Part shown: in pieces, positions 13,172 through 56,607 of the stretch
Layout of the letters: the number at the start of each line of letters is the position of its first letter
How positions within the stretch are numbered: the stretch's first letter is position 1
Origin: Polyangia bacterium
GTDB lineage: Bacteria; Myxococcota_A; Polyangia; Palsa-1104; JAEUJZ01
Assembly (NCBI GenBank): GCA_046351615.1
Contig: JAXLYF010000011.1
Coordinates: forward strand, 74,882-138,881
Direction: 5' to 3'
DNA length: 64,000 nucleotides
The notes under the pieces: generated by a model
Seen by the model: the letters and a program-made list of their open reading frames with translations, nothing else
What the model was told of the DNA's origin: nothing
Database searches by the model: none
Position numbers and translations under genes: made by a program

Positions 13172-13270
13172 CGTCCGAGCGGCTTTTTCAATCGGCTTCC
13201 CATCCTCCGTGGTATGTGACTGCCTTCCCGTTTCGCGAAGGCAACCCCCCGTGCTTTGGAGGCGTGCAGG

Positions 13271-14959
13271 ATGCGCAAGGTTCTCTGTAGAACAACCCGC
13301 CAGCGTCAGGGACTGCGCGTCCTTGGACTGGGCCTTCTTGCTGCGTCGCTCGGCGGCTGCGCGCCAGACCTGGACGTTCATTCGTCCGCGCCAGCTGTCT
13401 CAGCCGCCCCGCCTCAGCTTCAGCGGCTGACCAGCAGTCGCTATCTGTCCACCCTGCACAGTCTGTTTGAGGTCGAGGGCTTTGCGGCCCTGCGCTGGCC
13501 CACCCAGCTGGAGCGCGACACCTTGCTGCACGGCTATTCGACCGTCGGCGCCACTGAGCTGACCATCTCGCCCCGTGCTGCCGAGCTGTACGAAGATGCG
13601 GCGCTCGATCTGACCGGACAGGTCTTTGCCGAATCCGCCCGGCGCAGAGCCTGGGTCGGCTGCGAGCCCAAGTCGAGTGAGCCGAGCGATGACTGCGTGC
13701 GCTCGTTTGTGCAGAACACCGGCGCGCGCTTTTATCGCAGGCCGCTCACCACGCAAGAGCAGGACGAGTACCTGACCCTCATCGAAAAGACCGGCAAGGA
13801 GCTGGGCGATCCCTGGCAGGGCCTGCGCTTTGCGACCGTCGCCTGGCTCCAGTCTCCGCACGTCCTGTATCTGGTGGAGCAAGGCGAGCCCGATCCCGAC
13901 CGACCCGACCGCCTGCGCCTGACCGGCCATGAGCTGGCGACCCGACTGTCCTATCTTCTGTGGAATACCTCTCCCGATGACGAGCTGTTGCGTGCCGCCC
14001 AGTCCGATGAGCTGCTGACGGAGGAAGGCCTTTTGCGGCAGACCCGGCGGCTGCTGCAGTCGCCCAAGGCGCAGCCCTTTACCGACCAGTTTTTTGGCGA
14101 GTTTTTGTACCTCGATCGGCTCGATACGGTCAGCAAAGACGCCAAGCTGTTTCCAGAGTGGACGCCCCAGCTTGCCACTGCGATGCGCGGCGAGCTGCTG
14201 CGCCTTTTGCGCGAGCTGGCCCAGTCTGATGCGCATGACATGCGTGAGCTGTTTGATACCCGCACCACCTTCGTCAACGGAGAGCTGGCCAGCCACTACG
14301 GACTGCCTGCGGAGCTGACTCCACCACCGGGCATCTGGAAACAGATCGAGCTTCCCAGCGCCATGCAGCCCGGACTGCTTGGGCGCGCCGGAATCCTGTC
14401 TCTGTTTGCGCATGCGACCGTGACTTCACCGACCCTGCGCGGCAAGTTCATTCGTCAGCAGATCCTGTGTCAGGACATTCCGCCGCCGCCGCCAGGTGCT
14501 GCCGTCAACTTGGAAGCCGATACCGCTGGTGGGCCCAAGACCATGCGCGAAAAGCTGGCCAAGCATCGCGACGCCGCAGGGTGTGAGGGCTGTCATCGCA
14601 TGATGGACCCGATTGGACTTGCGCTCGAGCACTTCGGACCGACCGGCAAATACCGCGACAACGACAGCGGCCTGCCGATCGATCCCAGCGGAGAGCTGGA
14701 TGGAAAGCCGTTTGCGGACAGCCAAGAGCTGGCGTCCTTGCTTCGCCAAAGTCCGCGCATTGCAGAGTGTCTGACCCGTCAGCTCTATCGCTACGCCACC
14801 GCCCACTTGGAGCTACACAGCGAGCAGGAACAGATCCTCCTCCTCGGTCGGAAGTTTGCGCAAAACGGCTTCCGCTTCCCGCAGCTTGTGGAGTCTTTGG
14901 TGCTCAGCGAAGGATTCCGTTACGCCGCCCGGCCCCTGCTTTCGACGGACAGCGAGTAA
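13271..14959 (+). CDS. DUF1592/DUF1595/DUF1587/DUF1588/DUF1585 (PSD1-type) protein with c-type heme motif
   Basis: Signal peptide or lipobox LGGCAP. There is a CEGCH (CxxCH) motif encoded near 14582..14596. The gene pairs with the downstream DUF1552 gene, as in Planctomycetes and Myxococcota. Confidence 0.7.
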   Translation: MRKVLCRTTRQRQGLRVLGLGLLAASLGGCAPDLDVHSSAPAVSAAPPQLQRLTSSRYLSTLHSLFEVEGFAALRWPTQLERDTLLHGYSTVGATELTISPRAAELYEDAALDLTGQVFAESARRRAWVGCEPKSSEPSDDCVRSFVQNTGARFYRRPLTTQEQDEYLTLIEKTGKELGDPWQGLRFATVAWLQSPHVLYLVEQGEPDPDRPDRLRLTGHELATRLSYLLWNTSPDDELLRAAQSDELLTEEGLLRQTRRLLQSPKAQPFTDQFFGEFLYLDRLDTVSKDAKLFPEWTPQLATAMRGELLRLLRELAQSDAHDMRELFDTRTTFVNGELASHYGLPAELTPPPGIWKQIELPSAMQPGLLGRAGILSLFAHATVTSPTLRGKFIRQQILCQDIPPPPPGAAVNLEADTAGGPKTMREKLAKHRDAAGCEGCHRMMDPIGLALEHFGPTGKYRDNDSGLPIDPSGELDGKPFADSQELASLLRQSPRIAECLTRQLYRYATAHLELHSEQEQILLLGRKFAQNGFRFPQLVESLVLSEGFRYAARPLLSTDSE

Positions 14960-14968
14960 GAGGTCATC

Positions 14969-16279
14969 ATGTCCAGAATCATCATCCCCCGACGGACGTT
15001 TCTCAAAGGCATGCTGCACGGCGCCCAGGTTGCGCTGGCGCTTCCGCTGCTTGAGTCGATGACCCCAGCGCGTGCAGAGGCGACCGCACCACGTCGCTGC
15101 GGTCTGTGGTTTTGGGGCAACGGCATTCGTCGTGCGCACTGGATTCCCAAGACCACCGGAATGGACTGGGATGCACCCGAAGAGCTGGCTCCGCTTGCGA
15201 GCGTGCGCCGCTACGTCAACGTCATCACCGGCCTAGAGATCAAGACCGCGACCCATCCGCATCACTCGGGCATGACCGGCATCCTAACCGGTGCCAAGTA
15301 TCACCAAGTCGGCACCACCCGCGACACCATCGTCACCACCTGTGCACAGAAGACCGTCGATCAGGTCGCGGCGGACCACCTGGGACAGGGCACTCCCTTC
15401 CGATCCCTGGAGCTTGGCATCTGTCGCTTTCGCGGCACCGATGAAGGAACGACCTTCCAGCACCTGTCCCACAACGGTCCGAACAACGTCAATCCGTCCG
15501 AGTACTCGGCGCCTGCGCTGTTCAATCGGCTGTTTCCCAAGCTTCCGAACCCGGCAGAGCTGTCGGCGCGGCGCAGCGTGCTCGATGCAGTTCGTGGTCA
15601 GGTCAGTCGGCTGCGTGGACAGGTCTCTGCGCTCGATCGGCAGCGGCTCGAGCAGCACACCGAAAGCATTCGCAGCATCGAGCGTCGGCTGGAGATGACT
15701 GCCCAGACGTGTCAGGCTCCGTCTCGCCCCAGCGACCATCCCGATGTCATGGGTCAAGAGCAGATCGAGCAGCACAACCAAGTGATGAGCGACCTGCTCG
15801 CGCTGGCGCTGTCGTGCGATCTGACCCGCGTGTTCTCGGTGCTGTTTAGCAGTGCCGGGTCCGGCGTGATTGTCTGGCAAGCGGGCGCAATGAACGGCCT
15901 GCATCAGCTCTGTCATGACGAGCCCGCGCCGCAGCCAGTGGTGCATCAAGCCATCGTCTTTACGATGAAGCAGCTTGGTTACTTCCTTTCGCGCCTGCGC
16001 GACACGCCAGAGCTTGGCGGCAACCTGCTCGATAGCTGCGCGATCCTGTGTACCACCGAGCTGTCCGAAGGAAACGTCCACAGCAACGACGAGTTCCCGA
16101 TCCTGACGGCGGGTCTTGCGGGCGGCAAGCTGCGCGGCGGACTGCACGTCCGATCCACAGCCAAAGGAAACACCAGCCTGGTGCCGCTCACGGTCCTGCA
16201 AGCGGCGGGCTGTCCGATCGCAAGCTTTGGCTACGGACCCGGTCGCGTCGATGAAGGACTTAGCGACCTCTTGGTGTAA
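14969..16279 (+). CDS. DUF1552 family protein (Tat-signal), partner of PSD1-type protein
   Basis: MSRIIIPRRTFLKGML has a twin-arginine-like signal. The gene starts 10 bp after the previous stop, and an AGAGG RBS is present. Confidence 0.7.
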   Translation: MSRIIIPRRTFLKGMLHGAQVALALPLLESMTPARAEATAPRRCGLWFWGNGIRRAHWIPKTTGMDWDAPEELAPLASVRRYVNVITGLEIKTATHPHHSGMTGILTGAKYHQVGTTRDTIVTTCAQKTVDQVAADHLGQGTPFRSLELGICRFRGTDEGTTFQHLSHNGPNNVNPSEYSAPALFNRLFPKLPNPAELSARRSVLDAVRGQVSRLRGQVSALDRQRLEQHTESIRSIERRLEMTAQTCQAPSRPSDHPDVMGQEQIEQHNQVMSDLLALALSCDLTRVFSVLFSSAGSGVIVWQAGAMNGLHQLCHDEPAPQPVVHQAIVFTMKQLGYFLSRLRDTPELGGNLLDSCAILCTTELSEGNVHSNDEFPILTAGLAGGKLRGGLHVRSTAKGNTSLVPLTVLQAAGCPIASFGYGPGRVDEGLSDLLV

Positions 16280-16324: not shown

Positions 16325-18184
16325 CTAGACCGACAGTCCGAACTGCTGATCTTGATACAGCCGGTCTAGGTCCGGTCGGTACTTCTCTTCCACCTCGCGG
16401 CGTCGCACCTTCATCGTGGGCGTTAGCTCGCCGTGTTCCTGGCACAGATCGCGCGGCAGGATCAGCACCCGCCGCACTTGCTCAACGTGGGCCAGGTGCT
16501 CGTTGCCCCTGCGAATCGCCGCGAGCAGCCGCTCGGCAAACGCCTGACTCTGCACAATCGGCTCCATCGCCTGCGCCAGTGCCTCACTGCGCGCGCTCGG
16601 ATTGGCCACAAGCTCCTCGGTGCGCGCCTTCACCTCGGCTTTGCTCACCAGGCCGCGATCGAGTCCCCAGTCGAGCGTCTCCAGCGGGCTCGGCGCGATG
16701 ATGGCGCTGACGTAGGGCCGCATGTCCCCGTGCGCGATCACATGGCTGATGAGCGGATCGGTGCTCTTGAGGGCAGACTCGATGTTCCCCGGAGACAGGT
16801 TCTTTCCACCCGCCGTGATGATCAGGTGTTTTTTGCGGTCGGTGATGCGCAAAAAGCCATCGGCATCGATCGAGCCAATGTCGCCGGTATGCAGCCAGCC
16901 ATCGACAATCGCTTGGGCCGTCGCTTCCGGGTTGCGATAGTAGCCTTGGAACACCTGCGGACCGCGAATCAGGATCTCGCCATCGTCCGCCAGCTTCTGT
17001 TCCAGTCCCGACAGCAGCCGTCCCACTGTTCCCAGCCGTGCCGACTCCAGCGTGTTTACGTGCGTCACAGCGGTGGCTTCGGTCATTCCGTACGCTTCCA
17101 GGATCGGCATCCCGGCGGCCCAGAAAAAGCGCAGCACATCCTTGGGCGTCGGTGCCGCACCCACGATGAAGTAGCGCACCCGACCCCCGAAAAACGCGCG
17201 AATCTTGCGCCACAGCAGCCGATCCGCCACTTGATGCTGAAGCGCAAGCGACCACGGGATCGGCTCACCGGCTTGCTGCTTGTCCAGTCGCTCGCCGCTC
17301 ACCTGACGGGCCCACGCAAACAGGCTGCGTACTGGAGCCGGCTTGCGCTCCACCTCCGTCAGGATCTTGCTGTACGCCTTTTCAAAGATGCGCGGCACCG
17401 ATCCAAACACCGTCGGACCTACCTCACGTAGCTCTTCAAGCAGGCGGCTCATGCTGCTGGCAAAGGCCGTGGCCACGCCGGTCGAAACCCGCCCATAAAA
17501 CGACAGCACCCGCTCTGCCGAGTGCGCCATCGGTAGAAAGCTGATCGTCAGGTCATCCGCGAAAAAGCTCGCAAAGCCCTTGTTGTTCCCGAGCAGCGCC
17601 AGCAGGTTTCGGTGCGTCAGCATCGCGCCCTTGGGCGGCCCAGTCGTCCCTGAGGTGTAGATCAGGATCGCCGTGTCGTCCGGTGAGATGGCGGACAGCG
17701 ACTCACTGACCTGCTGTGGCGTCAGCGCAGGCACTTCCAGCACACTGGGCGACTGAAGCCGCGGATCGGTCCCTTGATACCGCACATGCAGCGCCTCATC
17801 CCACGGGATGATCGTGGTCAGGCTTGGCAGATCGCTCGCGGCACGGAGCACGCACTGTAGCTCGGACTCATCGCCGACCAGCACCACCTGCGCTTGGCTG
17901 TGGTCGAGCAGGTAGCGAATCTGCTCCTCTGTCTGTCCCTGATAGATGCCGAAGCTGACCAGCCCCAGCATCTGCGCCGCCAGGTCGTACAAAGACCACG
18001 GCAGCTTGGTCGGTCCGACGATCGCCAGCCGGTCCCCTCGCCGCAGCGACAGCTTGCGCAGCCCCGCCGCGATCCGCAGGACCTTTTGATAGGCCTGCGC
18101 CCAGGTGTACGGTCGCCAGCCGCTGCCTTCTCGCTCGAAGAAGGCTTGCCGGTCCGGGGTGGCTTCGACTCGCTTGCGCAGCAT
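16325..18184 (-). CDS. Long-chain fatty-acid--CoA ligase (AMP-dependent synthetase/ligase)
   Basis: The AMP-binding motif YTSGTTGPPKGAMLTHRNL is present and the length is about 620 aa. The start is taken at the internal ATG (MLRKRVEATPDRQAFF). Confidence 0.8.
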   Translation of the reverse strand: MLRKRVEATPDRQAFFEREGSGWRPYTWAQAYQKVLRIAAGLRKLSLRRGDRLAIVGPTKLPWSLYDLAAQMLGLVSFGIYQGQTEEQIRYLLDHSQAQVVLVGDESELQCVLRAASDLPSLTTIIPWDEALHVRYQGTDPRLQSPSVLEVPALTPQQVSESLSAISPDDTAILIYTSGTTGPPKGAMLTHRNLLALLGNNKGFASFFADDLTISFLPMAHSAERVLSFYGRVSTGVATAFASSMSRLLEELREVGPTVFGSVPRIFEKAYSKILTEVERKPAPVRSLFAWARQVSGERLDKQQAGEPIPWSLALQHQVADRLLWRKIRAFFGGRVRYFIVGAAPTPKDVLRFFWAAGMPILEAYGMTEATAVTHVNTLESARLGTVGRLLSGLEQKLADDGEILIRGPQVFQGYYRNPEATAQAIVDGWLHTGDIGSIDADGFLRITDRKKHLIITAGGKNLSPGNIESALKSTDPLISHVIAHGDMRPYVSAIIAPSPLETLDWGLDRGLVSKAEVKARTEELVANPSARSEALAQAMEPIVQSQAFAERLLAAIRRGNEHLAHVEQVRRVLILPRDLCQEHGELTPTMKVRRREVEEKYRPDLDRLYQDQQFGLSV

Positions 18185-18294
18185 ATCGCCGAGCGTGCGC
18201 GACGAGTGCGAGATGTGAAGCGCGGGCACATGCGGAGCATTTACCGAAAGCATCGCGCCGCCAGAGTATGCAAATCTGCGCGGCGCCCCAACGG

Positions 18295-19194
18295 CTAATT
18301 GTGCAGGGTCTGCGCGAAGAACGCCGCGACGTGCTGGGTATACCCAGCCGGGTCGGCATCAAAGCCCGCCGCGTGACGGGCCCCGGGCTGAATCCACACC
18401 GCCGAGCCGGGGAGCTGTGCCGCCATTTCCTGCGAGTCACTCGGCGCAATCAGCGTGTCGTCCGCCGCGTGCGTAAACAGCACCTTTCCCTTGATGGCGG
18501 GCACATGATCCACCGGCCTGACCGACAGCACATCCGTGCCGAGCCACAGCCGCGCCACCAGTCGCGCCGCAGGCATCACCAGCGAGGGCAGGTGGGTGCG
18601 ACGGTGCCACTCTCTGCGCATCAGTCGTCCGAAGTCGGCATAGCCACAGTCGGCGATGACGGCGGGTACCTGCGGATCTTGGGCCGCTGCCAGCAGCACA
18701 GACGCCGCGCCCATCGACACACCATGCAGACCAATCTGGCTGCGGCTGTAGCCTTGGCCCGTCAGGTAGTCGACTCCGCCGAGCACGTCTCGGCTTTCGT
18801 GAACGCCAAAGCTAAAGCGCGCATCCGACGACTGACCGTGTCCGCGCAGATCGATCGCCAGCAGTGCAAAGCCCTGCTTGTGTAGTGCGTCCAGAAACTC
18901 CAGGTTGCGACGGTGCTGTTCGTTGGTGCGACTGCCATCTTTGCCGTGCACCATCACCAGCGCGGCGCGGTGGCTGTCGTGCGGTAGATACCAGCCGGCC
19001 AGCTGCGCATCGCCGCCACGGGCCGGAAAGCGGACATCTTGGTAGATCAGTCCGAGCTGTCCGGGGTTTTTGCTGGTGTCGAAGTTGCGCTGTGGCTTGC
19101 TGAGCACCGCCACCACCGCAAAGCCCAAGGCAACGTACAAGAGCGCCGCAGCCAGAAAGAGGCGACCAAGCAGGCGAAGAGCGGGCGACTTCAT
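18295..19194 (-). CDS. Alpha/beta hydrolase with N-terminal membrane anchor
   Basis: Nucleophile elbow GVSMGA (G-x-S-x-G), a downstream Asp/His, and one N-terminal TM helix. Confidence 0.65.
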   Translation of the reverse strand: MKSPALRLLGRLFLAAALLYVALGFAVVAVLSKPQRNFDTSKNPGQLGLIYQDVRFPARGGDAQLAGWYLPHDSHRAALVMVHGKDGSRTNEQHRRNLEFLDALHKQGFALLAIDLRGHGQSSDARFSFGVHESRDVLGGVDYLTGQGYSRSQIGLHGVSMGAASVLLAAAQDPQVPAVIADCGYADFGRLMRREWHRRTHLPSLVMPAARLVARLWLGTDVLSVRPVDHVPAIKGKVLFTHAADDTLIAPSDSQEMAAQLPGSAVWIQPGARHAAGFDADPAGYTQHVAAFFAQTLHN

Positions 19195-19275
19195 CAGCAA
19201 CTCCGGTCCGACGCACCACCGCGTCGAGAAAACAGGGACGTGGCTCTACTGTAGCGCGGATCGCAGGTAGGGGGA

Positions 19276-20148: not shown

Positions 20149-21222
20149 TTGGTGTCAAAGCGTCCGCCGCTCCTTGGCTATAACCATAACGTCCGTCACG
20201 CTGGACGGCTGTTTCACGTCCAGACTGAGGACTCGGGACCGGCTCGTCCGGTTCTTTCCACGCACCTCTTCATCGAGGGGACCATCCTTTCGTCCCAGCG
20301 GACGACCTATCCGCTCGACGAGCCGGAGACGGTCACTCAGAAGCGGATGCAAGAGCAGCACAAAGACATGCTCAAGCGTCTGCGCAATGGGCAGTTCGAT
20401 CTCTTGCCGATTGTGCAGCGCTATCCCGTGACCAAGCCGGGAGAGCATGGCGCGCCCACTGCCAGCGCAGGTGCAGGGGACACCCAAAAGACGGCGGTGC
20501 CTCCGGCTGGGCAGGAGCCATCGCCCAAGGACACCGGATCTTCGCCCATCTTGTCCCCGGTTCCACCGCCACCGGCTGGGCCGACCGCTGGGACGGGGAC
20601 GCTGGCCGAGCGCCTGCGCAAGCTGAGCGGAGCGGCTGCTGCCTCGGCTGGTGCGCCTTCTCGGCCTCCGGTTCCCGATAGCAAGGTCGTGATCGCACCG
20701 GAGCTGCTGTCGGGTGGCGATGACGCCGTGGTGGAAATCGAAGCAGCTGCCGATGATGACGAGCCGGCAGTGACCTTCGAGGCCGAGGCCGATGACGAGG
20801 ATATGCTGAGCCAGAACACGCCGCTGCCCAAGGCACGGCCCATGGCGCAGCTCGATGAAGACAACACCGCGCAGTTTGGTGCCAGCCAGATGCCGGTGGT
20901 GAACCTGCCGCCGTCGCTGTCTCGCTCGATGGCGCCGCCTTCAGTGCTGCCATCGCCGCCGCAGCGCTCGATCCCGACCTATACGATTCCACCGGAGCTG
21001 TTTAAGCCACGGCCCACGGCGGAAGGTGTGACGCTCAAGCGCTCTCCACCTGTGCCGATTTCGCGCGCACCAAGTGATCCGATTCGGACGACGATTGTAC
21101 GGGCCCGCCCGACCCGACCTGCGCCGCTGGCGCCTTCGCTGCGGCCCGGTCAGACCTTGCCGCCGGACAGCCCGCTGGACGCTGAGCTGCTGGCCTATCT
21201 GGCGCGCGGCTCGAGTCGCTAA
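20149..21222 (+). CDS. Conserved hypothetical protein with a globular N-terminus (LGYNHNVRHAGRLFHVQTEDSG) and a long Pro/Ala-rich tail
   Basis: The start is a TTG or GTG (20149/20152). The N-terminal 90 aa look globular and the remainder is disordered P/A/S-rich sequence. Confidence 0.45.
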   Translation: MVSKRPPLLGYNHNVRHAGRLFHVQTEDSGPARPVLSTHLFIEGTILSSQRTTYPLDEPETVTQKRMQEQHKDMLKRLRNGQFDLLPIVQRYPVTKPGEHGAPTASAGAGDTQKTAVPPAGQEPSPKDTGSSPILSPVPPPPAGPTAGTGTLAERLRKLSGAAAASAGAPSRPPVPDSKVVIAPELLSGGDDAVVEIEAAADDDEPAVTFEAEADDEDMLSQNTPLPKARPMAQLDEDNTAQFGASQMPVVNLPPSLSRSMAPPSVLPSPPQRSIPTYTIPPELFKPRPTAEGVTLKRSPPVPISRAPSDPIRTTIVRARPTRPAPLAPSLRPGQTLPPDSPLDAELLAYLARGSSR

Positions 21223-21525: not shown

Positions 21526-24500
21526 TTACTCAAACAGGGGAATGTGGGCGGCTTGGCTCTGGTGAACAAGCTGCTCGGCGCGCTCCACCAGGTCCGCGAC
21601 GCCCTGCTCGGTCAGCCCCAGCAGCAGCCACGGGCCACCTGACTCGCTGGCTGGGGCCAGGTAGCGCCCCGGTCCCAGCACTGTCAGTCCTGGCTGGGTG
21701 CCGAGTGGCTTGCGGGCAAAGCGGGCCAGGCTGGGATCGGTGTGCGGGGCTGGCACGGCGCGACCAGAGCGCAGGTCAACTGCCGCCACCAGGTACAGCT
21801 CCTGCGGGAGCGTCGCACGCGGTAGCAGCGCCAGTTGCCGCAGGGTCTGGGCCGACAGCGCGGGCACTGGTGGGCTGTGCGGATACAGCTTGGCCAGCGG
21901 CTGCCAGTCTGGATCGGCATCGTCGGAATAGTAGGGCAGGCCATCGAGCGACCGTCCGTTGTCGATGCTGTAGATCCGAGTCGGCGTGAGCGGCTGCCAC
22001 AGGAAGTTGTCTGCGTAGTTGGCATCGCCATGGTGGATAAGGACCAAGAAGGTCCACAGGTCCGCGATGGCGTGGCGATAGCCACGGTCGATGCGGAAGC
22101 GCTCGGGGTTCCACAGCTCACCGTGGAAGCGAAGCGGCATCACGGCGTCATCAATCCAGTCGGTCAGCGCACCGAGCACCAGGTGATCATTGATCTCGGG
22201 GAAGGTCGCGGCGGTGTCCGACCCCATGATCTTGGGGACTGTTCGGCAGGCGCGATCGCAGGGCACGTTGCGATGAAAGGCGCGGACCACCACTTCCGGT
22301 ACGAGCTGACGCTCGGGCGCATCGGGGAAGAGGAAGCGGTCGATGCGACGGGCGGCCAGCTCACAGCGCGGCGCGTTGTTGCCTTCGATGCCGTCTTGCT
22401 GCTCGCTGGCCTGTGGCCCGAGCGGCTTCCACTTGGCGGTGAGCGAGCACCCAGGTCCGCTGTATTCCCCGCGACAGTCGGTCCGTGAAAGCGTAAGCCG
22501 ATAGACCGTCGGATTCACCTGTGCCACCGCGGTCAGCGTGAGATCCTGGGACAGCAGCTCGTCTTCGGTGGGCGATCGGCGCGGCGAAGGGGGCGACAGC
22601 CGGGAAAGGTACAGCTCACCCGCTGGAAGCTTCTGGGCCAACGGGGACTCTGCTTCAGTGGACAGGACATAGACCGGACGGTCCTGGGCAATCGCTTGCT
22701 CGATGTCCTGCACGCTGCGGGTCGGGGTGTAAAAGCGCAGGCTCAAGGTGGTCAGGTGTTCGGTCTGGCGTAGGTTCGCTGGGGTCTGGCCCAGGTACTT
22801 TTGCACCTGCGGTGTGCGCTGGGTATAGAGCTGGAAGTACGACACGAGCAGGCGGTCATCGACCAGGATCTCGGCGGCGGGCGGAAGCCATAGATCGAGC
22901 CACGTCACCAGGTCTTTGAGCGGCAGGGTGGGACGCGCAGGCAGCGCCAGATAGGCGGCGACGCGATCGGCCTTGTGGGCGGCGGCGTGCTGGCTGTGAC
23001 CCAGCCCCACGCCGAGCAGTGCGACCAGCGCCGTGGCCACAGCCTTTCGCAGCCAGAGCCAGCGCGCATCGGACACAAGGCCGAGCGAGCCGAGCAGCAC
23101 AAGGCACAGCGAAGCGGGGGCCCAAGACTCTGGGTTGGTAGGCTCAAAGAAGAAGAAGTGTCCGAGCAGCAGCAGGGGCCACGCCGCAAGCCGCGCAGTC
23201 ACAGCCGGTGCGGCGCGCAGGGCGTGGCGGCCCAGCCACAGCGCTCCGAGTCCGCCCAGGCCAGCTTCCCACGGCAGCAGGGGGGCCGGACGTTCACCGA
23301 ACAGCCAGGTGCTAAGTCCGCGATAGCAGTCGAGCAGGCGCTGCGGCACGCTCTGCGGTACGGACAGAAACTCACCGGACAGGTGATATTCCAGGTAGAA
23401 GCGCAGCAGGTCGGGGCCACTGCGGACTCCACCTGGACCGATGCCGAGCCACACAAGAAACGGTCCCAGCAGCGCGGCGGCGGTCAGCACGATGCGGAGC
23501 TGCGCACCGAGCAGATCCTTTTGGGGCCGATGCAGCAGCAGATCCACCAGCAACCAGACAAAGAGCAGCCCGCTGAGCAGGTGGATGGCCGTCGCAAGGG
23601 CCAGGAGCCCGCCGAGGATCGACTGCTGCTGCCTGGCTGAGAGACGGTCAAAGCCTGGCAGACCCAGGTCGAGCAGCCCGCGATGGTGAAGGTACAGCAG
23701 CAAAAACAGGCTGCTTGCCAGCTGCATGGACTCCTTTTCCTGTCCGCACAGGACCAGCTGCCAGCGTCCACGGGCGAGCAGGTAGAGCAGGCAGGCCAGG
23801 GTCGCTGTGAGCGCCTTGTGGCAAGGCTGCGGCTGGAGCGCGCGGGCCGCCAGGTAGAGGAGCGCCATGTTTCCGCCCAGGCTGAACGACTCACGAACCA
23901 GCACCGCCACGAGCGGATCATCGGTGAAGAGGAGAAACGGTGCGGTGAGCGGGATGATGAGCGGATGTGCAAAGAACAGCCAGTCGCCCAGGGCTGCTGC
24001 CCGGCCTTGGTGCAGCACGTTGGCGGTCATCAGCGCATCCCACTGCGGGTCCGCACCGAAGCGAAACAAGAGCTGCGCGGCGGTCGCAAGCATCCCGATG
24101 GAAAGCGCGGGCAAGAGCGGGGAGCGGCGTGGACCCAGGCTGCGCGCAATCACCTGGCTGAGCAGCGTCACTGGGAGCAGCAGGGGCGCGGCGAGGAGCA
24201 GCAGTCCGCTGGCGGTCAGGATGCCGAGCACAAAGCCGTTGTTTTCGTGGAAGAACAGGGCGGCGGGGTCGGGGGCGTGCTGACCTCGGCGGGCCAAAAA
24301 GAGTCCGCCATAGCCACCCGCAGCGAGAGCGGTCGCCATCACCAGCAGGTGCGTCCGGTGTGAAAACGCGGCGTACTCTGTCGCCAGCGCGGAGATACCC
24401 AGCAAGATCGGCGCGAGCACCGCGAGCGTGCGCTCGGGCCGGTCGTGGTCGGTGGTCGGATGGGAACCTTGGGCGTGCTGGGTCCACTTCGCGCCAAACA

Positions 24501-24663
24501 ATCCGCCGAGCAGCCAGCACAGGACGACGACAAACCAGGCGGTGGTGCTGGCAGACAGGCCACGCATTGCCACAAAGCCAAGCGTCACCTGGATGCAGGC
24601 GAGGGCAAAGCCGGTCACAAACGGCTCGCCGAGGCGCTGGGCTAGGGAAGGGCGCGGTGGCAT
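21526..24663 (-). CDS. Large polytopic membrane protein (about 13+ TM N-terminal half) with about 450-aa soluble C-terminal domain; function unknown
   Basis: 1045 aa. Hydrophobic helices run through the first 600 aa. The start is 10 bp after the stop of the upstream speE-like gene. Confidence 0.55.
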   Translation of the reverse strand: MPPRPSLAQRLGEPFVTGFALACIQVTLGFVAMRGLSASTTAWFVVVLCWLLGGLFGAKWTQHAQGSHPTTDHDRPERTLAVLAPILLGISALATEYAAFSHRTHLLVMATALAAGGYGGLFLARRGQHAPDPAALFFHENNGFVLGILTASGLLLLAAPLLLPVTLLSQVIARSLGPRRSPLLPALSIGMLATAAQLLFRFGADPQWDALMTANVLHQGRAAALGDWLFFAHPLIIPLTAPFLLFTDDPLVAVLVRESFSLGGNMALLYLAARALQPQPCHKALTATLACLLYLLARGRWQLVLCGQEKESMQLASSLFLLLYLHHRGLLDLGLPGFDRLSARQQQSILGGLLALATAIHLLSGLLFVWLLVDLLLHRPQKDLLGAQLRIVLTAAALLGPFLVWLGIGPGGVRSGPDLLRFYLEYHLSGEFLSVPQSVPQRLLDCYRGLSTWLFGERPAPLLPWEAGLGGLGALWLGRHALRAAPAVTARLAAWPLLLLGHFFFFEPTNPESWAPASLCLVLLGSLGLVSDARWLWLRKAVATALVALLGVGLGHSQHAAAHKADRVAAYLALPARPTLPLKDLVTWLDLWLPPAAEILVDDRLLVSYFQLYTQRTPQVQKYLGQTPANLRQTEHLTTLSLRFYTPTRSVQDIEQAIAQDRPVYVLSTEAESPLAQKLPAGELYLSRLSPPSPRRSPTEDELLSQDLTLTAVAQVNPTVYRLTLSRTDCRGEYSGPGCSLTAKWKPLGPQASEQQDGIEGNNAPRCELAARRIDRFLFPDAPERQLVPEVVVRAFHRNVPCDRACRTVPKIMGSDTAATFPEINDHLVLGALTDWIDDAVMPLRFHGELWNPERFRIDRGYRHAIADLWTFLVLIHHGDANYADNFLWQPLTPTRIYSIDNGRSLDGLPYYSDDADPDWQPLAKLYPHSPPVPALSAQTLRQLALLPRATLPQELYLVAAVDLRSGRAVPAPHTDPSLARFARKPLGTQPGLTVLGPGRYLAPASESGGPWLLLGLTEQGVADLVERAEQLVHQSQAAHIPLFE

Positions 24664-24672
24664 GTCCTGGGG

Positions 24673-26250
24673 CTACTCGCGAGCGTAGGCGTGACGCGCC
24701 AGCAAAAGGACGCCGAGCAGGTCGCGGTCAGACAGCGGACGTACCGCGTGGATGAGGCGTCGGACCTGGGCATCGGCAAAGAGCAGGACTGCACCCTGCG
24801 GGTCACGCGCTGTGACCGCTTGCTCGACCTGCGTGGGGGAAAAGGGCAGCTTGCGGGCGGCGTAAAGGACCGGCAGACCGACGGCGCTGCTGTCCACCAC
24901 CAGGATGTCGGCAAAGACTTGGGCGGCGGACTGGGCGATTCGCTGGGCGAGCGGCTCAGACAGCGCTTCACACAGGCTGAGCGACACCACGCCACCTGGG
25001 GTGAGGTGCTCGGCGACCTGACGATAGAACGTCGGGGTGTGCAGCAGCGCGGTGGCAATCCGATACGGTGCAGGGACATCGAGCACGATGAGGTCGAAGC
25101 GCTCGGTGCTGTGGGCCAGCGCATGTCGCGCATCATCCAGGGTCAGCGTGATGTCGTGGGGCGACAGGCGATGGACGCTGGCGAAGTGAGCAAAGCCCAG
25201 CGAGGCGACGCGGGCATCCAGCTCGATCACCTGGACGCGATAGCCCAGGCGGTGCAAGCGGGCCGCCGAAGAGAAGCTGCCACTGCCGACCACCAGCGCG
25301 TGGCCGCGTGTCGGTCGCATCGCTCCGGGGACTTCGGCCAGCAGGACGGAAAAGGCATCGAGCGAGCCCGAGCGATAGAACGGCACGCCATCGAGAAACA
25401 AGGCCGTCTCTGCGTCATCCCGAACGACATCAATGCGCTGATGGGGGGAGTAGTCGCTGGCGAGAAGCTGCGGAGACTTGATCCCATGGACGTGCCGGAA
25501 ATAGGCAGCTGTGACGTGCTGGTCGAGGTGTGAGCCAAGGCCGATGAGCGTCGCCGACCCGAGCAGTGTTCCCAGCGCCACCTTCCGACCGTAGCGAAGC
25601 AGGGCCATGACGACCGGCACAAGTAGATAGCCTGCGCGCAGCAGCTGGTAGGACGGCCCCAGCGCGATGCCGACCAGGAAGATCAGGGCTCCGGCCAGCT
25701 CTGCGGCATACAAGCGGGGCAGCGAGTCGGTCTTGGCGTACAGCGGCAGCAGCACCGCGCAGTATCCGCACGGGATCGTGATGAGCACGGTGGCCAGGAT
25801 GAGGGCCCAAGCTGGATGGGCTGTGCTGAGTGCAGCGCTGAGGGCTCGGATGCTCCAGGGGAGGGTTGCGTGCGCAAGGAACGCGACGGCGGCCCACAGG
25901 TGTTCGATGCTGCCACCAAGCGTTAGGCGGCTACCGAGCGCGTAGCCCAGGCTGGGACCCAGCAGCGTGATGAGCGTGGCGAGCAGCAGCGACAGCTCAG
26001 TGACAAAGAACGTCGAGCCCAGCTCTCGCGAGGCGACGTACTGACAGGCGAACAGGGCTGCACCACCGCTGGCCAGCACGGCGGACGCTAGGAACCCGCG
26101 TGGGAGAGACAGGGGAAGACGCAAAGCCGACGGCACAGCAGCTCTGCAGCGTAGCACAGGCGCTGCGCCTGGCTTGCTCGAAACTGTGCAGCTAGCGGGG
26201 CTGTCCGTAGAACGTGCCGCGACCGTTGGTGCCGATGTAGACGCGACCAA
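24673..26250 (-). CDS. Membrane-bound spermidine-synthase-like (aminopropyltransferase-fold) protein
   Basis: An N-terminal multi-TM region is followed by HQRIDVVRDD...LFLDGVPFYRSG...ALVVGSGSFS...DLIVLDVPAPY, resembling the SpeE core. The glycine-rich motif is VVGSGSFS rather than the canonical GGGDGG. The true start is probably downstream of 26250, because it overlaps the next gene. Confidence 0.6.
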   Translation of the reverse strand: MVASTSAPTVAARSTDSPASCTVSSKPGAAPVLRCRAAVPSALRLPLSLPRGFLASAVLASGGAALFACQYVASRELGSTFFVTELSLLLATLITLLGPSLGYALGSRLTLGGSIEHLWAAVAFLAHATLPWSIRALSAALSTAHPAWALILATVLITIPCGYCAVLLPLYAKTDSLPRLYAAELAGALIFLVGIALGPSYQLLRAGYLLVPVVMALLRYGRKVALGTLLGSATLIGLGSHLDQHVTAAYFRHVHGIKSPQLLASDYSPHQRIDVVRDDAETALFLDGVPFYRSGSLDAFSVLLAEVPGAMRPTRGHALVVGSGSFSSAARLHRLGYRVQVIELDARVASLGFAHFASVHRLSPHDITLTLDDARHALAHSTERFDLIVLDVPAPYRIATALLHTPTFYRQVAEHLTPGGVVSLSLCEALSEPLAQRIAQSAAQVFADILVVDSSAVGLPVLYAARKLPFSPTQVEQAVTARDPQGAVLLFADAQVRRLIHAVRPLSDRDLLGVLLLARHAYARE

Positions 26251-28420
26251 AGACGCGCGGGTCGGCTTCCATCACCATCGCTTGGTCGCCGATGGGCTGG
26301 CTGGGGCTGTCGATGCGCAGGTAGGTGAGGCCCAGGTCTTCACTGCGGAAGATGCCGGGGACGCCGCCGATGATGCCGTAGACAAACAGGGTGGACTGGC
26401 TGCTGCCGGGGGCGGGACGACCGAGCGCAAAGAGCTGGCAGTGGTCGATGCCTGCGACCTTGTGGAACGACAGTCCGGCGTCATCGGATCGAAACAGTCC
26501 GTTTTCGGCCAGGCAGACAAAGACCTGTCCGCGCACGCCCGGTGTGGTCTTGACGGAGGGTCCGGGCTGTCCGCTGCGGGTGTCAAAGGGGGGCGCGGGA
26601 AGCTGGGCGGTCTGCTGGAAGTGCTGTCCGCCATCGCTGCTGACGTAAAACGCACCTTGAAGGAACAGATAGAACAGGGCGGAAGAGGTGCGGTCGGACG
26701 CGAGCGGATGGGTGTAGTCCCAGCGGTCGGAGATGGCGTTTTTGGGGGCACCTTGGCTGGGCTTCCAGGTCTTGCCGCCATCACTGGTGAAGGAGGGGAT
26801 CGCGTTTTGCGGGACCCACACCGCACGCTGACAGTCGCTGCCAGCCAAGACGATGCGGCCATTTTTGGCCTTGGCAAAGGGCAGGGTGGCAAAGCGGACA
26901 AAGGAAGCGGCTCCATCTTCGGATCGCGCACCTCGGAATGGACCGCCGCGCTCTTCGCCGACGCGCATGACGACGCTGGGGTTTGCCTCGCAGAAGTCGA
27001 GCCCGGTGGTGTCGCCGTCTTCGCCCTTGGGTCCGATCATGCGGGTCTTGGGATACGCGTCGAGATCTTCATGGCGAAAGCCATCGACATCAGCCACGCC
27101 GCTGAGCAGAGGCACCCCGGCTGGGGGACTGCGCAGGACAAACGGCTCGACTTCCTCATGGCCAGCTTGCAGGGTGGACCACGAGGAGGGCACTTGGTAG
27201 ACGTCGTTGGTCTTCCAGGTTCCGTAGTAGTCGGTCAGAAACACCCGACTGGGCCGGTGCGGATCGATGAGCAGCGAGGATGTGTGTCCGGTAAAGAAGC
27301 GCTGCGGCCACCACGGAACCTCTGCTTGACGCAGGATGGCGAGCGGCTGCCAGGACGCGCCTCGGTCGTGGCTTTCAAACAGCGGGGTCGGAAAGACATC
27401 GCTGGCGGGGGCGACGAGCAGGTGGCCCGGATCGCTTGGATCGACGCTGATTCCGCCATAGTCGTAGCGGGTCTTGCTGGTCGGCGTGATGCGGAACCAG
27501 CGGTCGGCTTGCAGCTTGTAGACGCCGCCAGGCTGGGTCTTGTCGCCGACCGACGTGACATAGAGCACGCCATCGGTGGCGAGAGCGGCGCGCTGTGGGC
27601 TACGCGGGAAGGGTCCGCTGCCAAGCCTGGCCCAGGTGACGCCTGCGTCTTGGCTGCGGAAGATGCCTTCGCCTGCGACGCCGACAAACAGGACCTGGCT
27701 CGGCTGGCCGCTCAGGCTGCTTTTGCCGTCGAATAAGACAAACGAAAGACCCAGCTCGGCGGTGCCGGTTGCGGGGAAGGACGCGACGCGAGAAAAGTGC
27801 TGGCCTTCATCGTCGCTCTTCCACAGACCATCGGTGCGTGAGCCGTAGTAGAGGATCTTGGGCTGGCTTGGATCGATGGCCAGGCGCTCTCCGACCCAGC
27901 GGAAGTTTTCGTTGCCACCGATGGGGACGGGGAGTCCGAGCTTGCGCCACACGGTGCCGCCGTCTTCGGAGCGGTACAGACCCGAGGGCTGCGAAAGCCA
28001 CGGACGCGGCAGGTACTTTCCCAGCGCGGCGTAGAGGATCTGCGGGTTTTCGGGATGGAGCGCGACGCTCTCGACGCCGTACAGGTGCCAGTCCTGGCGG
28101 GGAAAGGAGTCAAGGAGCGGCACCCAGCGCTGCGCGGTGGTGTTCCATTTGTACAGGCCGCCGACATCGGTGCGAATGTAGATCTGGTCGGGGACCTTGG
28201 GATGGATGACGATGCCGGTGACGTAGCCGCCGCCGCCCACCACGACAGAGCGCCAGGAGTAGTCGGCTGCGGGGGCCGTCCCATTGGCTTCGGGTCGCCG
28301 GGCTGTGGGCTGAGTGGGCAGCGCTGCGCAGCTTGCGACAAAGGGAGCCAGCAGCAGGACGGAGCCGCGTGCGCGGTGAAGACGCAGTCGATGCGGAGCC
28401 TTCGGCGAGGAGACTGTCAT
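26192..28420 (-). CDS. Secreted BNR/Asp-box repeat protein, GH74-xyloglucanase/sortilin-like
   Basis: Signal peptide present. GGGGYVTGIVIHP...IYIRTDVGGLYKWN, and repeated Asp-boxes (YRSEDGGTVW, FRSQDAGVTW, HDRGASW, SDGGKTW, SSDGGQHF, FRSDDAGLSF). Confidence 0.65.
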   Translation of the reverse strand: MTVSSPKAPHRLRLHRARGSVLLLAPFVASCAALPTQPTARRPEANGTAPAADYSWRSVVVGGGGYVTGIVIHPKVPDQIYIRTDVGGLYKWNTTAQRWVPLLDSFPRQDWHLYGVESVALHPENPQILYAALGKYLPRPWLSQPSGLYRSEDGGTVWRKLGLPVPIGGNENFRWVGERLAIDPSQPKILYYGSRTDGLWKSDDEGQHFSRVASFPATGTAELGLSFVLFDGKSSLSGQPSQVLFVGVAGEGIFRSQDAGVTWARLGSGPFPRSPQRAALATDGVLYVTSVGDKTQPGGVYKLQADRWFRITPTSKTRYDYGGISVDPSDPGHLLVAPASDVFPTPLFESHDRGASWQPLAILRQAEVPWWPQRFFTGHTSSLLIDPHRPSRVFLTDYYGTWKTNDVYQVPSSWSTLQAGHEEVEPFVLRSPPAGVPLLSGVADVDGFRHEDLDAYPKTRMIGPKGEDGDTTGLDFCEANPSVVMRVGEERGGPFRGARSEDGAASFVRFATLPFAKAKNGRIVLAGSDCQRAVWVPQNAIPSFTSDGGKTWKPSQGAPKNAISDRWDYTHPLASDRTSSALFYLFLQGAFYVSSDGGQHFQQTAQLPAPPFDTRSGQPGPSVKTTPGVRGQVFVCLAENGLFRSDDAGLSFHKVAGIDHCQLFALGRPAPGSSQSTLFVYGIIGGVPGIFRSEDLGLTYLRIDSPSQPIGDQAMVMEADPRVFGRVYIGTNGRGTFYGQPR

Positions 28421-52319: not shown

Positions 52320-53470
52320 GGTGCGAGCGGAGTAAGGGCTTGGCGCTGGGCGTATTGCTGCTGGGACTGACTGGCTGCCCGCGCGGTGAGGTTGCGACGG
52401 AAAGTAACACGGTCGTGTCACTGGATGCGGGGGCCGTGGCGACGAAGACTGACACACAGGTGTCACCAGAAGGAGAGGTTCGCTCGCTGGCGTGGGCTCC
52501 GCTGCTGGTGGGTGACGGTGCGCTGCTGTGGGAAGTGCCCGCGCAGAGCCTGGGTTCGGCGCAGCAGCGGGGCGAGGTGATGCCAGCGTTTCGGGCGCAG
52601 GTTCTGCAAGTGCTGGTCGAGCCAGGACAGACGGTAGCCGTCGGTGAGCCGCTGGTGGTGGTGCGCATGCCCGAGGTGCTGCGTGCAGCGGGCGCGTACG
52701 TCGCGGCGGGCCTGCGCGTGTCGGCGCACAACCAGCGACGTGAACAGCTCGTGTCACTGCGGGGCGAAGGGCTGGCGCGGCTGTCGGACCTGGCGGAAGT
52801 GCAGGCGGCGCTGGCAGAGGCGCAGGCGGCACAGAAGGAAGCGCAGGCGGTGCTGGCGGCGGCGGGTGTGACAACCAGTGAAGCACCGTCGCTGTGCGAG
52901 GGGTCGGGGAAGGTGACGCTGCGCAGTCCGATTGCAGGCGTGGTGACGACGGTGACGGCATCGCTTGGACAGCTGGTCGAGCCGGGCGGGGCGGCGCTGG
53001 TGAAGCTGTCGGGGAAAGGCTCGTCGCGGGTCGAAGCGCGGCTGCCGGATGCGGGGACGCTTCAGCTTCGCTATGAGCTACAGCTGGCCGATGGGCGGGT
53101 GCTGGCGCTGCGGCAGGTGTCGCGGGCTCCGATGCTGGATCCTCGTGATGGGATGGCGCAGACGTGGCTGGTGGCACAAAACGACGAGCCGCTGCTTTCT
53201 GGGCTGAGCGGACGGCTGCGGGTGCGGCTGGACAAGTCTCCGACGGAAGATCGACTGTGGCTTGTGCCAGCGCGGGCGCTGCGGCTGGGCGACGGACAAG
53301 TGACGGTGCTTCGTCAGCGGAGCGGACAGCTGCGGACGGTGCGGGTGAAAGTCGCGGCGAGCGCGGGCGGCAAAGCGCTGCTGTCAGCGACGGATGCAAG
53401 CGAGCTTTCACTGGGGGATCGGGTTGCGCTGGACCCGAGCTTGACGGAATCGACAGGAGAGAAGCCATGA
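52316..53470 (+). CDS. Efflux RND periplasmic adaptor (membrane fusion protein, CzcB/CusB-like)
   Basis: N-terminal lipobox LLGLTGC. The architecture is coiled-coil hairpin plus beta-barrel. ATGA overlaps at both ends. Confidence 0.7.
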   Translation: MRCERSKGLALGVLLLGLTGCPRGEVATESNTVVSLDAGAVATKTDTQVSPEGEVRSLAWAPLLVGDGALLWEVPAQSLGSAQQRGEVMPAFRAQVLQVLVEPGQTVAVGEPLVVVRMPEVLRAAGAYVAAGLRVSAHNQRREQLVSLRGEGLARLSDLAEVQAALAEAQAAQKEAQAVLAAAGVTTSEAPSLCEGSGKVTLRSPIAGVVTTVTASLGQLVEPGGAALVKLSGKGSSRVEARLPDAGTLQLRYELQLADGRVLALRQVSRAPMLDPRDGMAQTWLVAQNDEPLLSGLSGRLRVRLDKSPTEDRLWLVPARALRLGDGQVTVLRQRSGQLRTVRVKVAASAGGKALLSATDASELSLGDRVALDPSLTESTGEKP

Positions 53471-56400: not shown

Positions 56401-56607
56401 GTGACGGCGCTCGTTGCGGCGCTGGGCTTTGTGCCGATGGCGATGGCGCAGGGTGTGGGCGCAGAAGTACAAAGGCCGCTGGCGACGGTGGTGGTCGGGG
56501 GTCTGTGTACGTCGACGGCGCTGACACTGCTCATCTTGCCGAGCCTGTATCCCAGTCTGTCGGCGCTGATGGATGCGCTGTCTCGCAAGCGGAAGCCGGT
56601 CGGGTAA
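53467..56607 (+). CDS. Heavy-metal efflux RND transporter (CzcA/CusA family)
   Basis: The start is taken at ATG 53467 (MSESWIARLVRGSVTHRVMVLLVSLLL). It is about 1046 aa with 12 TM helices and two large periplasmic loops, typical of HME-RND. The upstream extension in the ORF track (from 53164) overlaps the MFP and is rejected. Confidence 0.85.
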   Translation: MSESWIARLVRGSVTHRVMVLLVSLLLVVGSSLMAMRLKLDALPDVTNNQVLVLTGAPGLSPEEVERLVTRPIETALGGMPRLVELRSISRYGISAVTAVFEDDSPPHLARQITAERLATVVLPPEVETPALGPLTGGLGEVFHFSITSSQRTLSELLELSTLRISPRLRMVPGIVEVNTWGGSERRLEVRADPLKLASRKLSLQQLAQGLADSIGATAGASVPSGSGQALLRAVFRPHRPEELSALLLPSVTNGTEHASDGVPHRLVVGDLAQVTEGEAPRLGAATQDGHGEVVYLMAQMLRGENALEVLRGIHERMSELEKTLPPDVKVQVIYDRSVLVHATLRTVGKNLLEGGLLVATVLLLMLGSWRAGLLVALVIPLSMLGAAVAMVLVGVPGNLMSLGAVDFGLLVDGAVVMVEHLFHHPGQASSDGTAGSLSSISRRASEVAKPVLFSVLIILLVYLPVLLLDGVEGKMFRPMAVTVVCALFTALILSLLFIPAGAALLLRPKDLEEVRPPLLVRVMERLYRPVLDVALRHSLLVGVLATVLLGAGVTALWKSGSEFLPQLDEGDLVIQTTRSADISLEQAVKQAGRVEQVLRQLPEVRQVVSRVGSPAVATDIMGLEQADVFVGLRPRSEWRSGLSRDGLIHEMERLLDEKAPGGEPSFTQPIQMRFNEILAGAVTDVVVSVYGEDLHQIEQLAHAVAKACAAEPGAEDVRVLAPPAVPLVEVRPRPIEAAQAGLTPKDILSAVQAVRSGLVVGTSYDGPVRLPVVLRLGESVPDAVGLSALPLPLADGTSVPLGRVSDISFTPTPTLIQRHNGQRRLMVGFNVRGVDLGSLLHRAEARVIKQVKLPPGYRLTWGGQYETFEAARARLGVLIPAVLLIIIVALWRLFGSLRKALILFLAVPFAGTGGMILLWARGMPVSISAAIGFIALSGIAVLNGVVLMVRLLDLERQGLTPRQAAAEAAKTRMRPVMVTALVAALGFVPMAMAQGVGAEVQRPLATVVVGGLCTSTALTLLILPSLYPSLSALMDALSRKRKPVG

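Follow-up and report, generated by a model that had tools for sequence, protein, structure and literature searches.

The acidic residue of the GxG(D/E)G motif of spermidine synthases binds the amine of decarboxylated S-adenosylmethionine (dcSAM) and excludes S-adenosylmethionine (SAM). Loss of this acid separates the experimentally shown seven-transmembrane (7TM) methyltransferase NHMT from the spermidine synthases (PMC10349129). NHMT (Aspergillus AN4663), a spermidine synthase (SpdS)-like N-terminal histidine methyltransferase of lytic polysaccharide monooxygenases, acts on secreted substrates, and its 7TM region has been reported to be fungus-specific (PMC10349129). Together with the SpdS-like domain of METTL13, NHMT is among the closest known systems to the protein described here, designated SPE, which is encoded in a 64,000-nucleotide stretch of DNA (hereafter the window) from a Polyangia bacterium (assembly GCA_046351615.1, contig JAXLYF010000011.1, positions 74,882 to 138,881). 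SPE is followed by a gene for a 1045-aa protein, designated BIG, an inner-membrane multi-enzyme fusion protein comprising the modules M1, M2 and M3. Each of the catalytic folds found in the two proteins is known, and the M1, M2 and M3 families are unnamed. The best explanation of the whole, to which we give about an even chance, is that SPE and BIG constitute a coupled envelope glycosyltransferase/kinase/methyltransferase assembly.

NHMT and SPE share a common plan, in which about seven transmembrane (TM) helices precede a domain of the spermidine synthase fold, and in both proteins a neutral residue, Ile in NHMT and Ser in SPE, stands where GxG(D/E)G has its acid. The likeness rests on this plan and on the motif, not on a sequence relation of the TM regions, and SPE, unlike NHMT, is always accompanied by a separate partner with six TM helices, M1. 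The membrane-bound SpeE proteins of NCBIfam NF037959 ('fused MFS/spermidine synthase', where MFS stands for major facilitator superfamily) and PRK03612 also combine a TM region with a PABS domain. SPE differs from the NF037959 proteins in having a single block of about seven helices, the second membrane unit being either a separate protein with a HENNGF motif or the N-terminus of BIG. The single canonical NF037959 member that was read (P0086) likewise has no acidic residue in the motif (GVGNS); it contains two copies, recognized by eye, of a YE..W.R-type motif in one chain, and no HENNGF module.

Apart from the NHMT paper, the literature on membrane-bound or fused spermidine synthases and on bacterial Fam20-like periplasmic kinases yielded nothing on these families. 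In the literature and family databases searched, no description was found of a GT-C glycosyltransferase fused to an exported kinase-fold domain, of a dedicated six-TM adaptor pairing with a membrane SpdS-like enzyme, or of the spread of the SPE and M1 pair across many phyla.

The SPE and BIG gene pair

Three open reading frames (ORFs) lie in succession on the minus strand of the window, as given in a preliminary description of this DNA: a gene for a glycoside hydrolase family 74 (GH74) lipoprotein (26192–28420, 742 aa), SPE, and BIG (21526–24663). All three are real genes, judging by the homologues found for BIG and SPE and by the full-length structure matches of the upstream protein. The tight packing that had been described applies to SPE and BIG, which are separated by 9 nt (24664–24672), but the overlap of the GH74 gene with SPE holds only for the longest SPE ORF (24673–26250, 525 aa, TTG start at 26250). 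This overlap is a longest-ORF artefact, because a public protein 99% identical to SPE (P0012) is called at 487 aa, which corresponds to a GTG start at 26136. The SPE gene called in this way (24673–26136, 487 aa), encoding a putative SpdS-like membrane SAM methyltransferase, is separated from the GH74 stop (26192) by 55 nt. A promoter and terminator scan of the region 20.5–34.5 kb gave no useful signal.

Full-length BIG had no match in Pfam, NCBIfam or the PDB sequences. Among 5.8 billion clustered proteins 11 matches were found, i.e. one identical copy and 10 full-length homologues with 46–89% identity. A profile search of 1.84 billion representatives identified 274 relatives, which showed that the three parts of BIG also occur alone: M1 (aa ~10–175) in proteins of 160–190 aa, M2 (aa ~180–690) in proteins of 510–560 aa, and M3 (aa ~700–1045) in proteins of 320–400 aa; proteins with M1 and M2 are ~700 aa long. 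M1, M2 and M3 fall outside all Pfam and NCBIfam families, in agreement with the earlier view that the system has no characterised counterpart. The division of BIG into three independently occurring modules, the assignment of aa 1–178 as the true partner of SPE and the recognition of a kinase-like domain at the C-terminus all go beyond the preliminary description.

The gene neighbourhood of BIG was compared among related loci. In all full-length loci (L001 and L004–L007) the distance from the end of SPE to BIG is 9–60 nt, and the M1–M2 fusion is kept at identities from 37% to 100% in Myxococcales, Polyangia and a 'Pseudomonadota' metagenome-assembled genome (MAG). The window itself derives from an uncultured Myxococcales MAG, and a contig that is 99.6–100% identical to it (L003, CALMML010000123) is the window's own contig. 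The GH74 gene does not lie between a cyclase gene (described below) and SPE in L004 and L005, while L007 contains a match to neither GH74 nor the cyclase. In L001 the GH74 gene is split into two ORFs and is ~480 nt shorter, and in L006 it is frameshifted. Despite this loss or damage, SPE and BIG are intact in all five loci. No GH74 gene was found in 35 more distant loci with SPE and M1 or with M2. Since the related loci keep SPE and BIG intact while the GH74 gene is missing or damaged, this gene is not a conserved partner. SPE and BIG are thus strictly syntenic, as had been anticipated for the whole group, but the GH74 gene is not, and the conserved functional unit is the SPE and BIG gene pair rather than a three-gene set.

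The GH74 protein itself resembles known enzymes. In a phmmer search against the PDB, 17 GH74 structures matched it over the full length (aa 46–742, E-values from 1.7e-110 to 3.4e-61), the best being 2cn2, Xgh74A of Clostridium thermocellum; GH74 xyloglucanases of Paenibacillus and Caldicellulosiruptor are similarly alike. The similarity extends over the entire tandem seven-bladed β-propeller catalytic module of GH74. Both catalytic Asp equivalents are kept, D85 in RTDVGG (aa 83–88) and D444 in VADVDGF (aa 442–448); they correspond to D70 and D480 of Xgh74A, which we take to be the numbers of its catalytic residues. The D70 site was located from the difference between 2cn2 and 2cn3 (D70A), and D480 (SEQRES 453, VGD) by means of the resulting numbering offset. 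A lipobox (VASC, aa 28–31) ends the lipoprotein signal. Compared with the known xyloglucanases the protein differs slightly, as it is a lipoprotein without a carbohydrate-binding module, and it has no syntenic tie to SPE and BIG. On the strength of its similarities and genomic distribution, the upstream gene appears to encode an ordinary, independent and dispensable glycan hydrolase.

These results bear on the earlier proposal that the three genes encode a single conserved machine. A three-part system of the GH74 protein, SPE and BIG for the synthesis or remodelling of an exopolysaccharide of the β-glucan or xyloglucan-like type would be in keeping with the common strand and short gaps, with the secreted lipoprotein nature and intact catalytic residues of the GH74 protein, and with the action of both GT-C enzymes and glycoside hydrolases on envelope glycans. 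It is nevertheless largely refuted by synteny, that is, by the missing or damaged GH74 genes of all five related loci and by their absence from all 35 distant ones, and we consider it highly improbable.

A further gene upstream (28472–30364, minus strand) encodes a class III adenylate/guanylate cyclase of 630 aa (PF00211, E = 9e-27), of which the N-terminal ~440 residues are unassigned. In each of the five Myxococcales/Polyangia loci where this flank is visible, the cyclase gene immediately precedes SPE (or the GH74 gene), and it is missing in the 'Pseudomonadota' MAG locus L007.

SPE and the M1 module

The N-terminal TM domain of SPE (25522–26136, minus strand, aa 1–205) contains about seven hydrophobic segments, as delimited by a hydrophobicity and conservation profile of 65 sequences, and carries the conserved motif Q-x-x-x-x-R-E-x-G-S-T...T-E. 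The catalytic domain (24676–25473, minus strand, aa 222–487) was defined by alignments to the structures 1uir, 3anx, 1iy9 and 6o65 and by conservation within the family, for which 75 homologues were found. SPE matched PF01564 at 33.7 bits (cutoff 22.9) and, in a phmmer search, 10 SpeE structures, which places it within the PABS (SpeE) fold. It also matched NF037959 at 40.7 bits (cutoff 40), at profile positions 276–411, corresponding to the catalytic part only. The scores against the speE equivalog models were far below their cutoffs (TIGR00417, PRK00811 and PRK03612, with 36.6, 64.7 and 49.2 bits against 249.6, 260 and 472, respectively).

The VVGSGSFS motif reported for this protein is present and is conserved across the SPE family. 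Its GSGSFS part (25270–25287, minus strand, aa 284–289) replaces the canonical GGGDGG in at least 90% of the 65 family members, so that the acid of GxG(D/E)G is Ser. Two key motifs on the same strand are retained, as judged from the SpeE alignment and the 65-sequence profile: ELD (within IELD, 25216–25227), which provides the ribose-binding acidic residue, and DDA (within LDDA, 25129–25140). The catalytic D-S-T-D-P has been changed to L-D-V-P-A-P (in LDVPAPY, 25063–25083, minus strand); the first Asp is kept, and Ala stands in place of the second acidic residue. Both GSGSFS and DVPAPY are conserved family-wide.

SPE was read as methyltransferase-like because the acid of GxG(D/E)G has been lost, the same criterion as that applied to NHMT. 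We conclude that it is probably a SAM-dependent methyltransferase-like protein and not a polyamine synthase. The family scans, SpeE alignments and family profile hence bear out the initial reading, in which this protein combines a multi-TM N-terminus with a SpeE fold, departs from the canonical cofactor motif and is unlikely to make spermidine. The competing possibility is that SPE is a genuine membrane-bound aminopropyltransferase, whose product, spermidine or a longer polyamine, is exported through M1 and the SPE TM domain to decorate the envelope. Against this, the dcSAM-selecting acid is Ser throughout the family, the second catalytic acidic residue is lost, the equivalog scores are low, and no speD (dcSAM decarboxylase) gene was noticed among those that recur next to SPE and M1; we regard it as very unlikely. 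The probable methyltransferase-like nature of SPE would also correct a likely systematic mis-annotation, since the SPE and M1 pair occurs in at least 10 phyla, where its only annotations are 'spermidine synthase' or 'hypothetical', and proteins of the SPE type are probably not polyamine synthases.

The orientation of SPE in the membrane was assessed with a crude script based on hydrophobicity and the positive-inside rule. For 71 homologues, the catalytic domain was predicted to lie outside in 41 cases and inside in 30. A positively charged loop (RYGRK) precedes the last TM helix of SPE, and this positive-inside pattern, taken together with the 41 of 71 crude predictions, leans toward a possible location of the catalytic domain outside.

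M1 (24130–24663, minus strand, aa 1–178 of BIG) is a membrane module of six predicted helices with an invariant FFHENNGF motif (24232–24255, minus strand). A genome scan, seeded only with the BIG motifs FFHENNGF (M1) and WLFFAHPL (M2), yielded 42 loci, one of which (L002) was cut at a contig end and was uninformative. An SPE homologue was directly adjacent or fused to M1 in all 41 informative loci, and the stop and start codons often overlap. The scanned loci span Nitrospinota, Nitrospirota, Ignavibacteria, Scalindua, Hydrogenedentota, Gammaproteobacteria, Elusimicrobia and Myxococcota. Single-chain M1–SPE fusions are represented by P0149, P0215 and ORFs in L008, L012 and L018, with two HENNGF units together with a SpdS domain in P0149 and P0215, while Minicystis rosea carries two tandem SPE and M1 pairs. 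Because M1 is adjacent or fused to SPE in every informative locus, gene order identifies it as the conserved partner of SPE; in the window it simply forms the N-terminus of BIG.

Two HENNGF (M1) units stand in tandem, in some cases followed by an SPE unit, in L012 (9938–13006), P0149, P0215, P0163, P0216 and P0206. The M1 unit thus undergoes duplication, and oligomerisation is possible. With its six helices, M1 does not have the twelve helices, arranged as two homologous halves in one protein, of the MFS, and the E-value of its comparison with canonical fused MFS/SpdS proteins, in their membrane units, was 0.12.

The neighbours of SPE and M1 in distant loci include pseudopilins with GGDEF, an AMP-ligase with a carrier protein, an exosortase-A-type ligase (Scalindua) and a KamA-like radical-SAM enzyme (Nitrospinota). 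A common pathway based on recurring neighbours was rejected, as these genes are lineage-specific. In L008 and L018, the surroundings comprise 3–5 large pseudopilin-like proteins (N_methyl and T2SSG matches) and a GGDEF response regulator. In L017, L020, L037 and L040, an AMP-ligase, a carrier protein and sometimes a large membrane protein are encoded directly after SPE and M1. With 612 bits, the Scalindua ligase scores above the cutoff (592) of TIGR03098, an exosortase-A-associated model. The window itself contains a FadD-type AMP-ligase (642 aa) and an α/β hydrolase (16325–19200, minus strand), the latter with a weak match, below the cutoff, to TIGR03100, 'hydrolase 1, exosortase A system-associated' (E = 7e-8).

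The GT-C-fold and kinase-like domains of BIG

Many envelope structures, among them lipid A, arabinogalactan and protein glycans, are built or decorated by GT-C enzymes, several of which are resistance or virulence determinants. The search for a GT-C fold suggested for the 1045-aa protein was performed, and such a fold was found in M2 (22939–24129, minus strand, aa 179–575), which forms a putative transmembrane glycosyltransferase domain of this fold. The structure matches (values as tabulated) were ALG12 (22.1), ArnT (19.8), Pmt4 (19.5), AglB (18.7), STT3B (18.4) and PglB (15.9), with AftA, AftB, AftD and DPY19 as further matches. At the sequence level, curated glycosyltransferase family models in Pfam and NCBIfam (GT39, GT83, GT66, GT87, DUF2723 and similar) matched neither BIG nor standalone M2 proteins; the sole trace of a known GT-C enzyme was a weak TMEM260-like match (E = 1.2e-3) in a distant relative, P0135. 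Compared with the described GT-C enzymes (ArnT, PMT1/2/4, ALG12/ALG9/ALG3, PglB/AglB/STT3, AftA/B/D, TMEM260), M2 has its own motifs, FAHP, GEEK, EYH and PExW. It is preceded by a six-TM module that presumably recruits another enzyme and is followed by a kinase-like domain; neither arrangement was found described for a GT-C enzyme.

The residues W208-D209 are invariant in 17 divergent M2 proteins and are located 8 residues after the first M2 helix, within DPQWDALMTA (24022–24051, minus strand). The same proteins share A232, H233, L235, P238, E258, E309, K310, H361, E512 and W514. M2 has 11 helices, with positive charges in alternate loops, as counted by eye from the sequence and the helices of the model. 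This suggests that M2 starts with its N-terminus inside and that its C-terminal region lies outside, and because of this orientation W208-D209 would be placed in the first outer loop, like the catalytic acid of GT-C enzymes. The charge distribution and the exported character of M3 both suggest the outward orientation of W208-D209.

The last TM helix of BIG is followed by a soluble region that had been described as a 450-aa C-terminal domain of unknown fold. Its extent was correct (approximately aa 576–1045), but a kinase-like domain was found within it. The region begins with a small α/β domain (22564–22938, minus strand, aa 576–700; pLDDT ~65–83 in the AlphaFold2 (AF2) model), which also occurs in standalone M2 proteins and so is part of the M2 family. 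The remainder is M3 (21529–22563, minus strand, aa 701–1045), an atypical kinase domain similar to type II phosphatidylinositol 4-kinase (PI4KII) and Fam20, and predicted to be periplasmic. Residues 712–954 of the full-length BIG model had pLDDT values below 50 and were not used to assess M3, which was re-modelled with a 47-sequence alignment.

The high-confidence re-model displayed a bilobal protein kinase-like fold of the PI4KII/Fam20 type. The best match (values as tabulated) was PI4K type IIα (15.1), followed by Fam20 kinases (14.4–14.9), Helicobacter pylori CtkA (12.0), CotH (11.4), actin-fragmin kinase (11.0), HipA (about 10) and PI3K/PIKK (about 10). The catalytic set is complete, comprising K744, E768, H878-x-D880-xxxxx-N886 and D901-N-G; all 47 sequences have D880 and N886, and at least 90% of them retain K744, E768, H878 and D901. 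The M3 family profile matched Vps34 (E = 4.8e-5), aligning H-x-D-xxxxx-N with the catalytic loop (GDRHxDN) and D-N-G with the DFG motif (IDFG). Pfam PF00454 (PI3_PI4_kinase) did not match BIG or its 10 close relatives, and distant M3 relatives scored 19.2–19.5 bits against this model (cutoff 27.1). The identity of M3 to the Fam20 kinases (the xylose kinase Fam20B, and Fam20C) and to type II PI 4-kinase is only 13–17%, and M3 differs from them in being bacterial and predicted to be periplasmic or lipoprotein-anchored. All sources label the M3 proteins 'hypothetical'.

Standalone M3 relatives begin with a lipobox or a Sec signal, e.g. P0098 (VGAC) and P0106 (AAA/EE), and a Cys pair recurs among them. 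Because of these signals and Cys pairs, M3 is predicted to be extracytoplasmic, in agreement with the topology of M2. Two arrangements independently link M3 to GT-C enzymes. In locus L047, a standalone M2 gene overlaps a gene for an M3 protein with a signal peptide by 4 nt. P0326 (L052, 6692–8413) is a fusion of a VanX-like Peptidase_M15 domain with M3, and its gene is flanked by GT87 and DUF2079 genes, which we take to be families of the GT-C type; in P0235, M3 is fused to a β-lactamase-family domain. The fusions to cell wall-type enzymes hint that proteins of the M3 family may act on peptidoglycan or the envelope.

Taken together, the M1, M2 and M3 modules define three unnamed families with clear predicted catalytic residues, and a mechanism for the proposed assembly can be outlined. 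At the periplasmic face of the inner membrane, M2 would glycosylate an acceptor, drawing the sugar from a polyprenyl-phosphate-linked donor; the invariant Asp209, which would lie in the first outer loop, is presumed to be the catalytic acid or base. The α/β domain and M3 would be located in the periplasm, where M3 may phosphorylate, or otherwise modify in a nucleotide-dependent manner, the glycan or acceptor handled by M2, a role similar to that of Fam20B or POMK on lumenal glycans of the eukaryotic secretory pathway. M1 could act as a docking subunit for SPE, the membrane parts forming one assembly that would hold the SPE catalytic domain beside the glycosyltransferase. SPE itself would use SAM to methylate, probably on nitrogen, the same envelope glycoconjugate or its lipid-linked precursor.

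Several points weigh against this coupled assembly. The chemistry of every step is read from folds, and the AF2 model of full-length BIG is only moderate (mean pLDDT 59.7). A physical interaction of SPE with M1 is deduced solely from the order and fusion of their genes. Between M1 and the membrane domain of SPE, the alignment was co-linear but without significance (hhalign probability 2.7% with default and 13% with greedy settings; pairwise E-values 0.017 and 0.002), and for this reason homology between them is not claimed. The occurrence of M2 with M3 (L047) and of M1 with M2 in the absence of M3 (L044) indicates that the modules can work in other combinations. Finally, no SAM pool is known in the periplasm, so the SPE domain, if outside, would have no obvious methyl donor; the periplasm is also generally held to lack ATP, which leaves an exported kinase domain with no obvious phosphate donor. 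The locus thereby raises the question of how kinase-type reactions, and perhaps SAM-dependent ones as well, are supplied outside the cytoplasm of bacteria.

A more far-reaching possibility would be an assembly in which all three catalytic domains, i.e. the GT-C site, the Fam20/PI4KII-like kinase and the SpdS-like methyltransferase, are periplasmic, with M1 and the SPE TM domain as MFS-like units that conduct SAM, and perhaps a nucleotide, across the inner membrane to these domains. Such an arrangement, to which we assign a low probability, would be a bacterial counterpart of the toolkit of the eukaryotic endoplasmic reticulum and Golgi lumen, where ALG/PMT enzymes glycosylate, Fam20/POMK-type kinases phosphorylate glycans and NHMT methylates secreted proteins. 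If true, it would mean that SAM- and ATP-dependent chemistry takes place in the periplasm of many phyla by way of the widespread SPE and M1 pair.

The function of M3 is open to another interpretation, namely that it is a PI4K-type lipid kinase acting on inositol or another membrane lipid head group, or a pseudokinase that positions the acceptor for the GT-C domain. PI4KIIα is the top structural match of M3, PI3K/PI4K enzymes fill much of the match list, the only sequence-level matches are PI3_PI4_kinase and Vps34, and for a binding domain the lack of periplasmic ATP would pose no problem. We hold this to be unlikely, and retain the assignment of M3 as a candidate kinase of the glycan or acceptor handled by M2.

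It is also conceivable that SPE with M1 and M2 with M3 have unrelated functions that were fused by chance in one myxobacterial lineage. SPE and M1 occur without M2 or M3 in most phyla, M2 and M3 are found on a 9.4-kb contig (L047) on which no SPE was seen, and standalone M3 genes are present in varied contexts. However, the M1–M2 fusion has been maintained over the whole identity range of 37–100%, and it is also found without M3, in P0090–P0093 as well as in L044. Moreover, in loci L008 and L018, from Neomarinimicrobiota/FCB-type MAGs, a standalone M2 gene is convergent with, and touches, an M1–SPE fusion gene, which represents a second, independent association of M2 with M1 and SPE. A fortuitous fusion therefore appears quite unlikely, and a functional link between SPE and all of BIG is preferred.

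Other genes and features of the window

The gene convergent with BIG (20149–21222, plus strand) is kept in related MAGs, and the N-terminal domain of its product is of the RomY type (NCBIfam NF053858, 96 bits, cutoff 50); RomY is a polarity regulator of Myxococcus. Upstream of the cyclase gene, positions 30524–33457 (minus strand) encode a 977-aa protein with major vault protein (MVP) domains (MVP_shoulder, E = 8e-19; Vault_3; Vault_4). Its counterpart in the related MAG locus L001 is 94% identical, while the neighbouring genes there are only ~73–79% identical, and by this comparison it appears to be a strongly conserved bacterial homologue of MVP.

At 13256–16279 (plus strand), an adjacent pair of proteins is encoded with the domains DUF1592/DUF1588/DUF1595/DUF1585/DUF1587 and DUF1552 (HXXSHH), respectively, a pair that we take to be common in Planctomycetota and Myxococcota. 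The GC content of the window falls to 0.53–0.58 at 38–48 kb, and the GC skew then turns strongly positive (0.18–0.23) at 48–58 kb, a stretch that includes a gene for an AcrB-type resistance-nodulation-division (RND) pump at 53164–56607.

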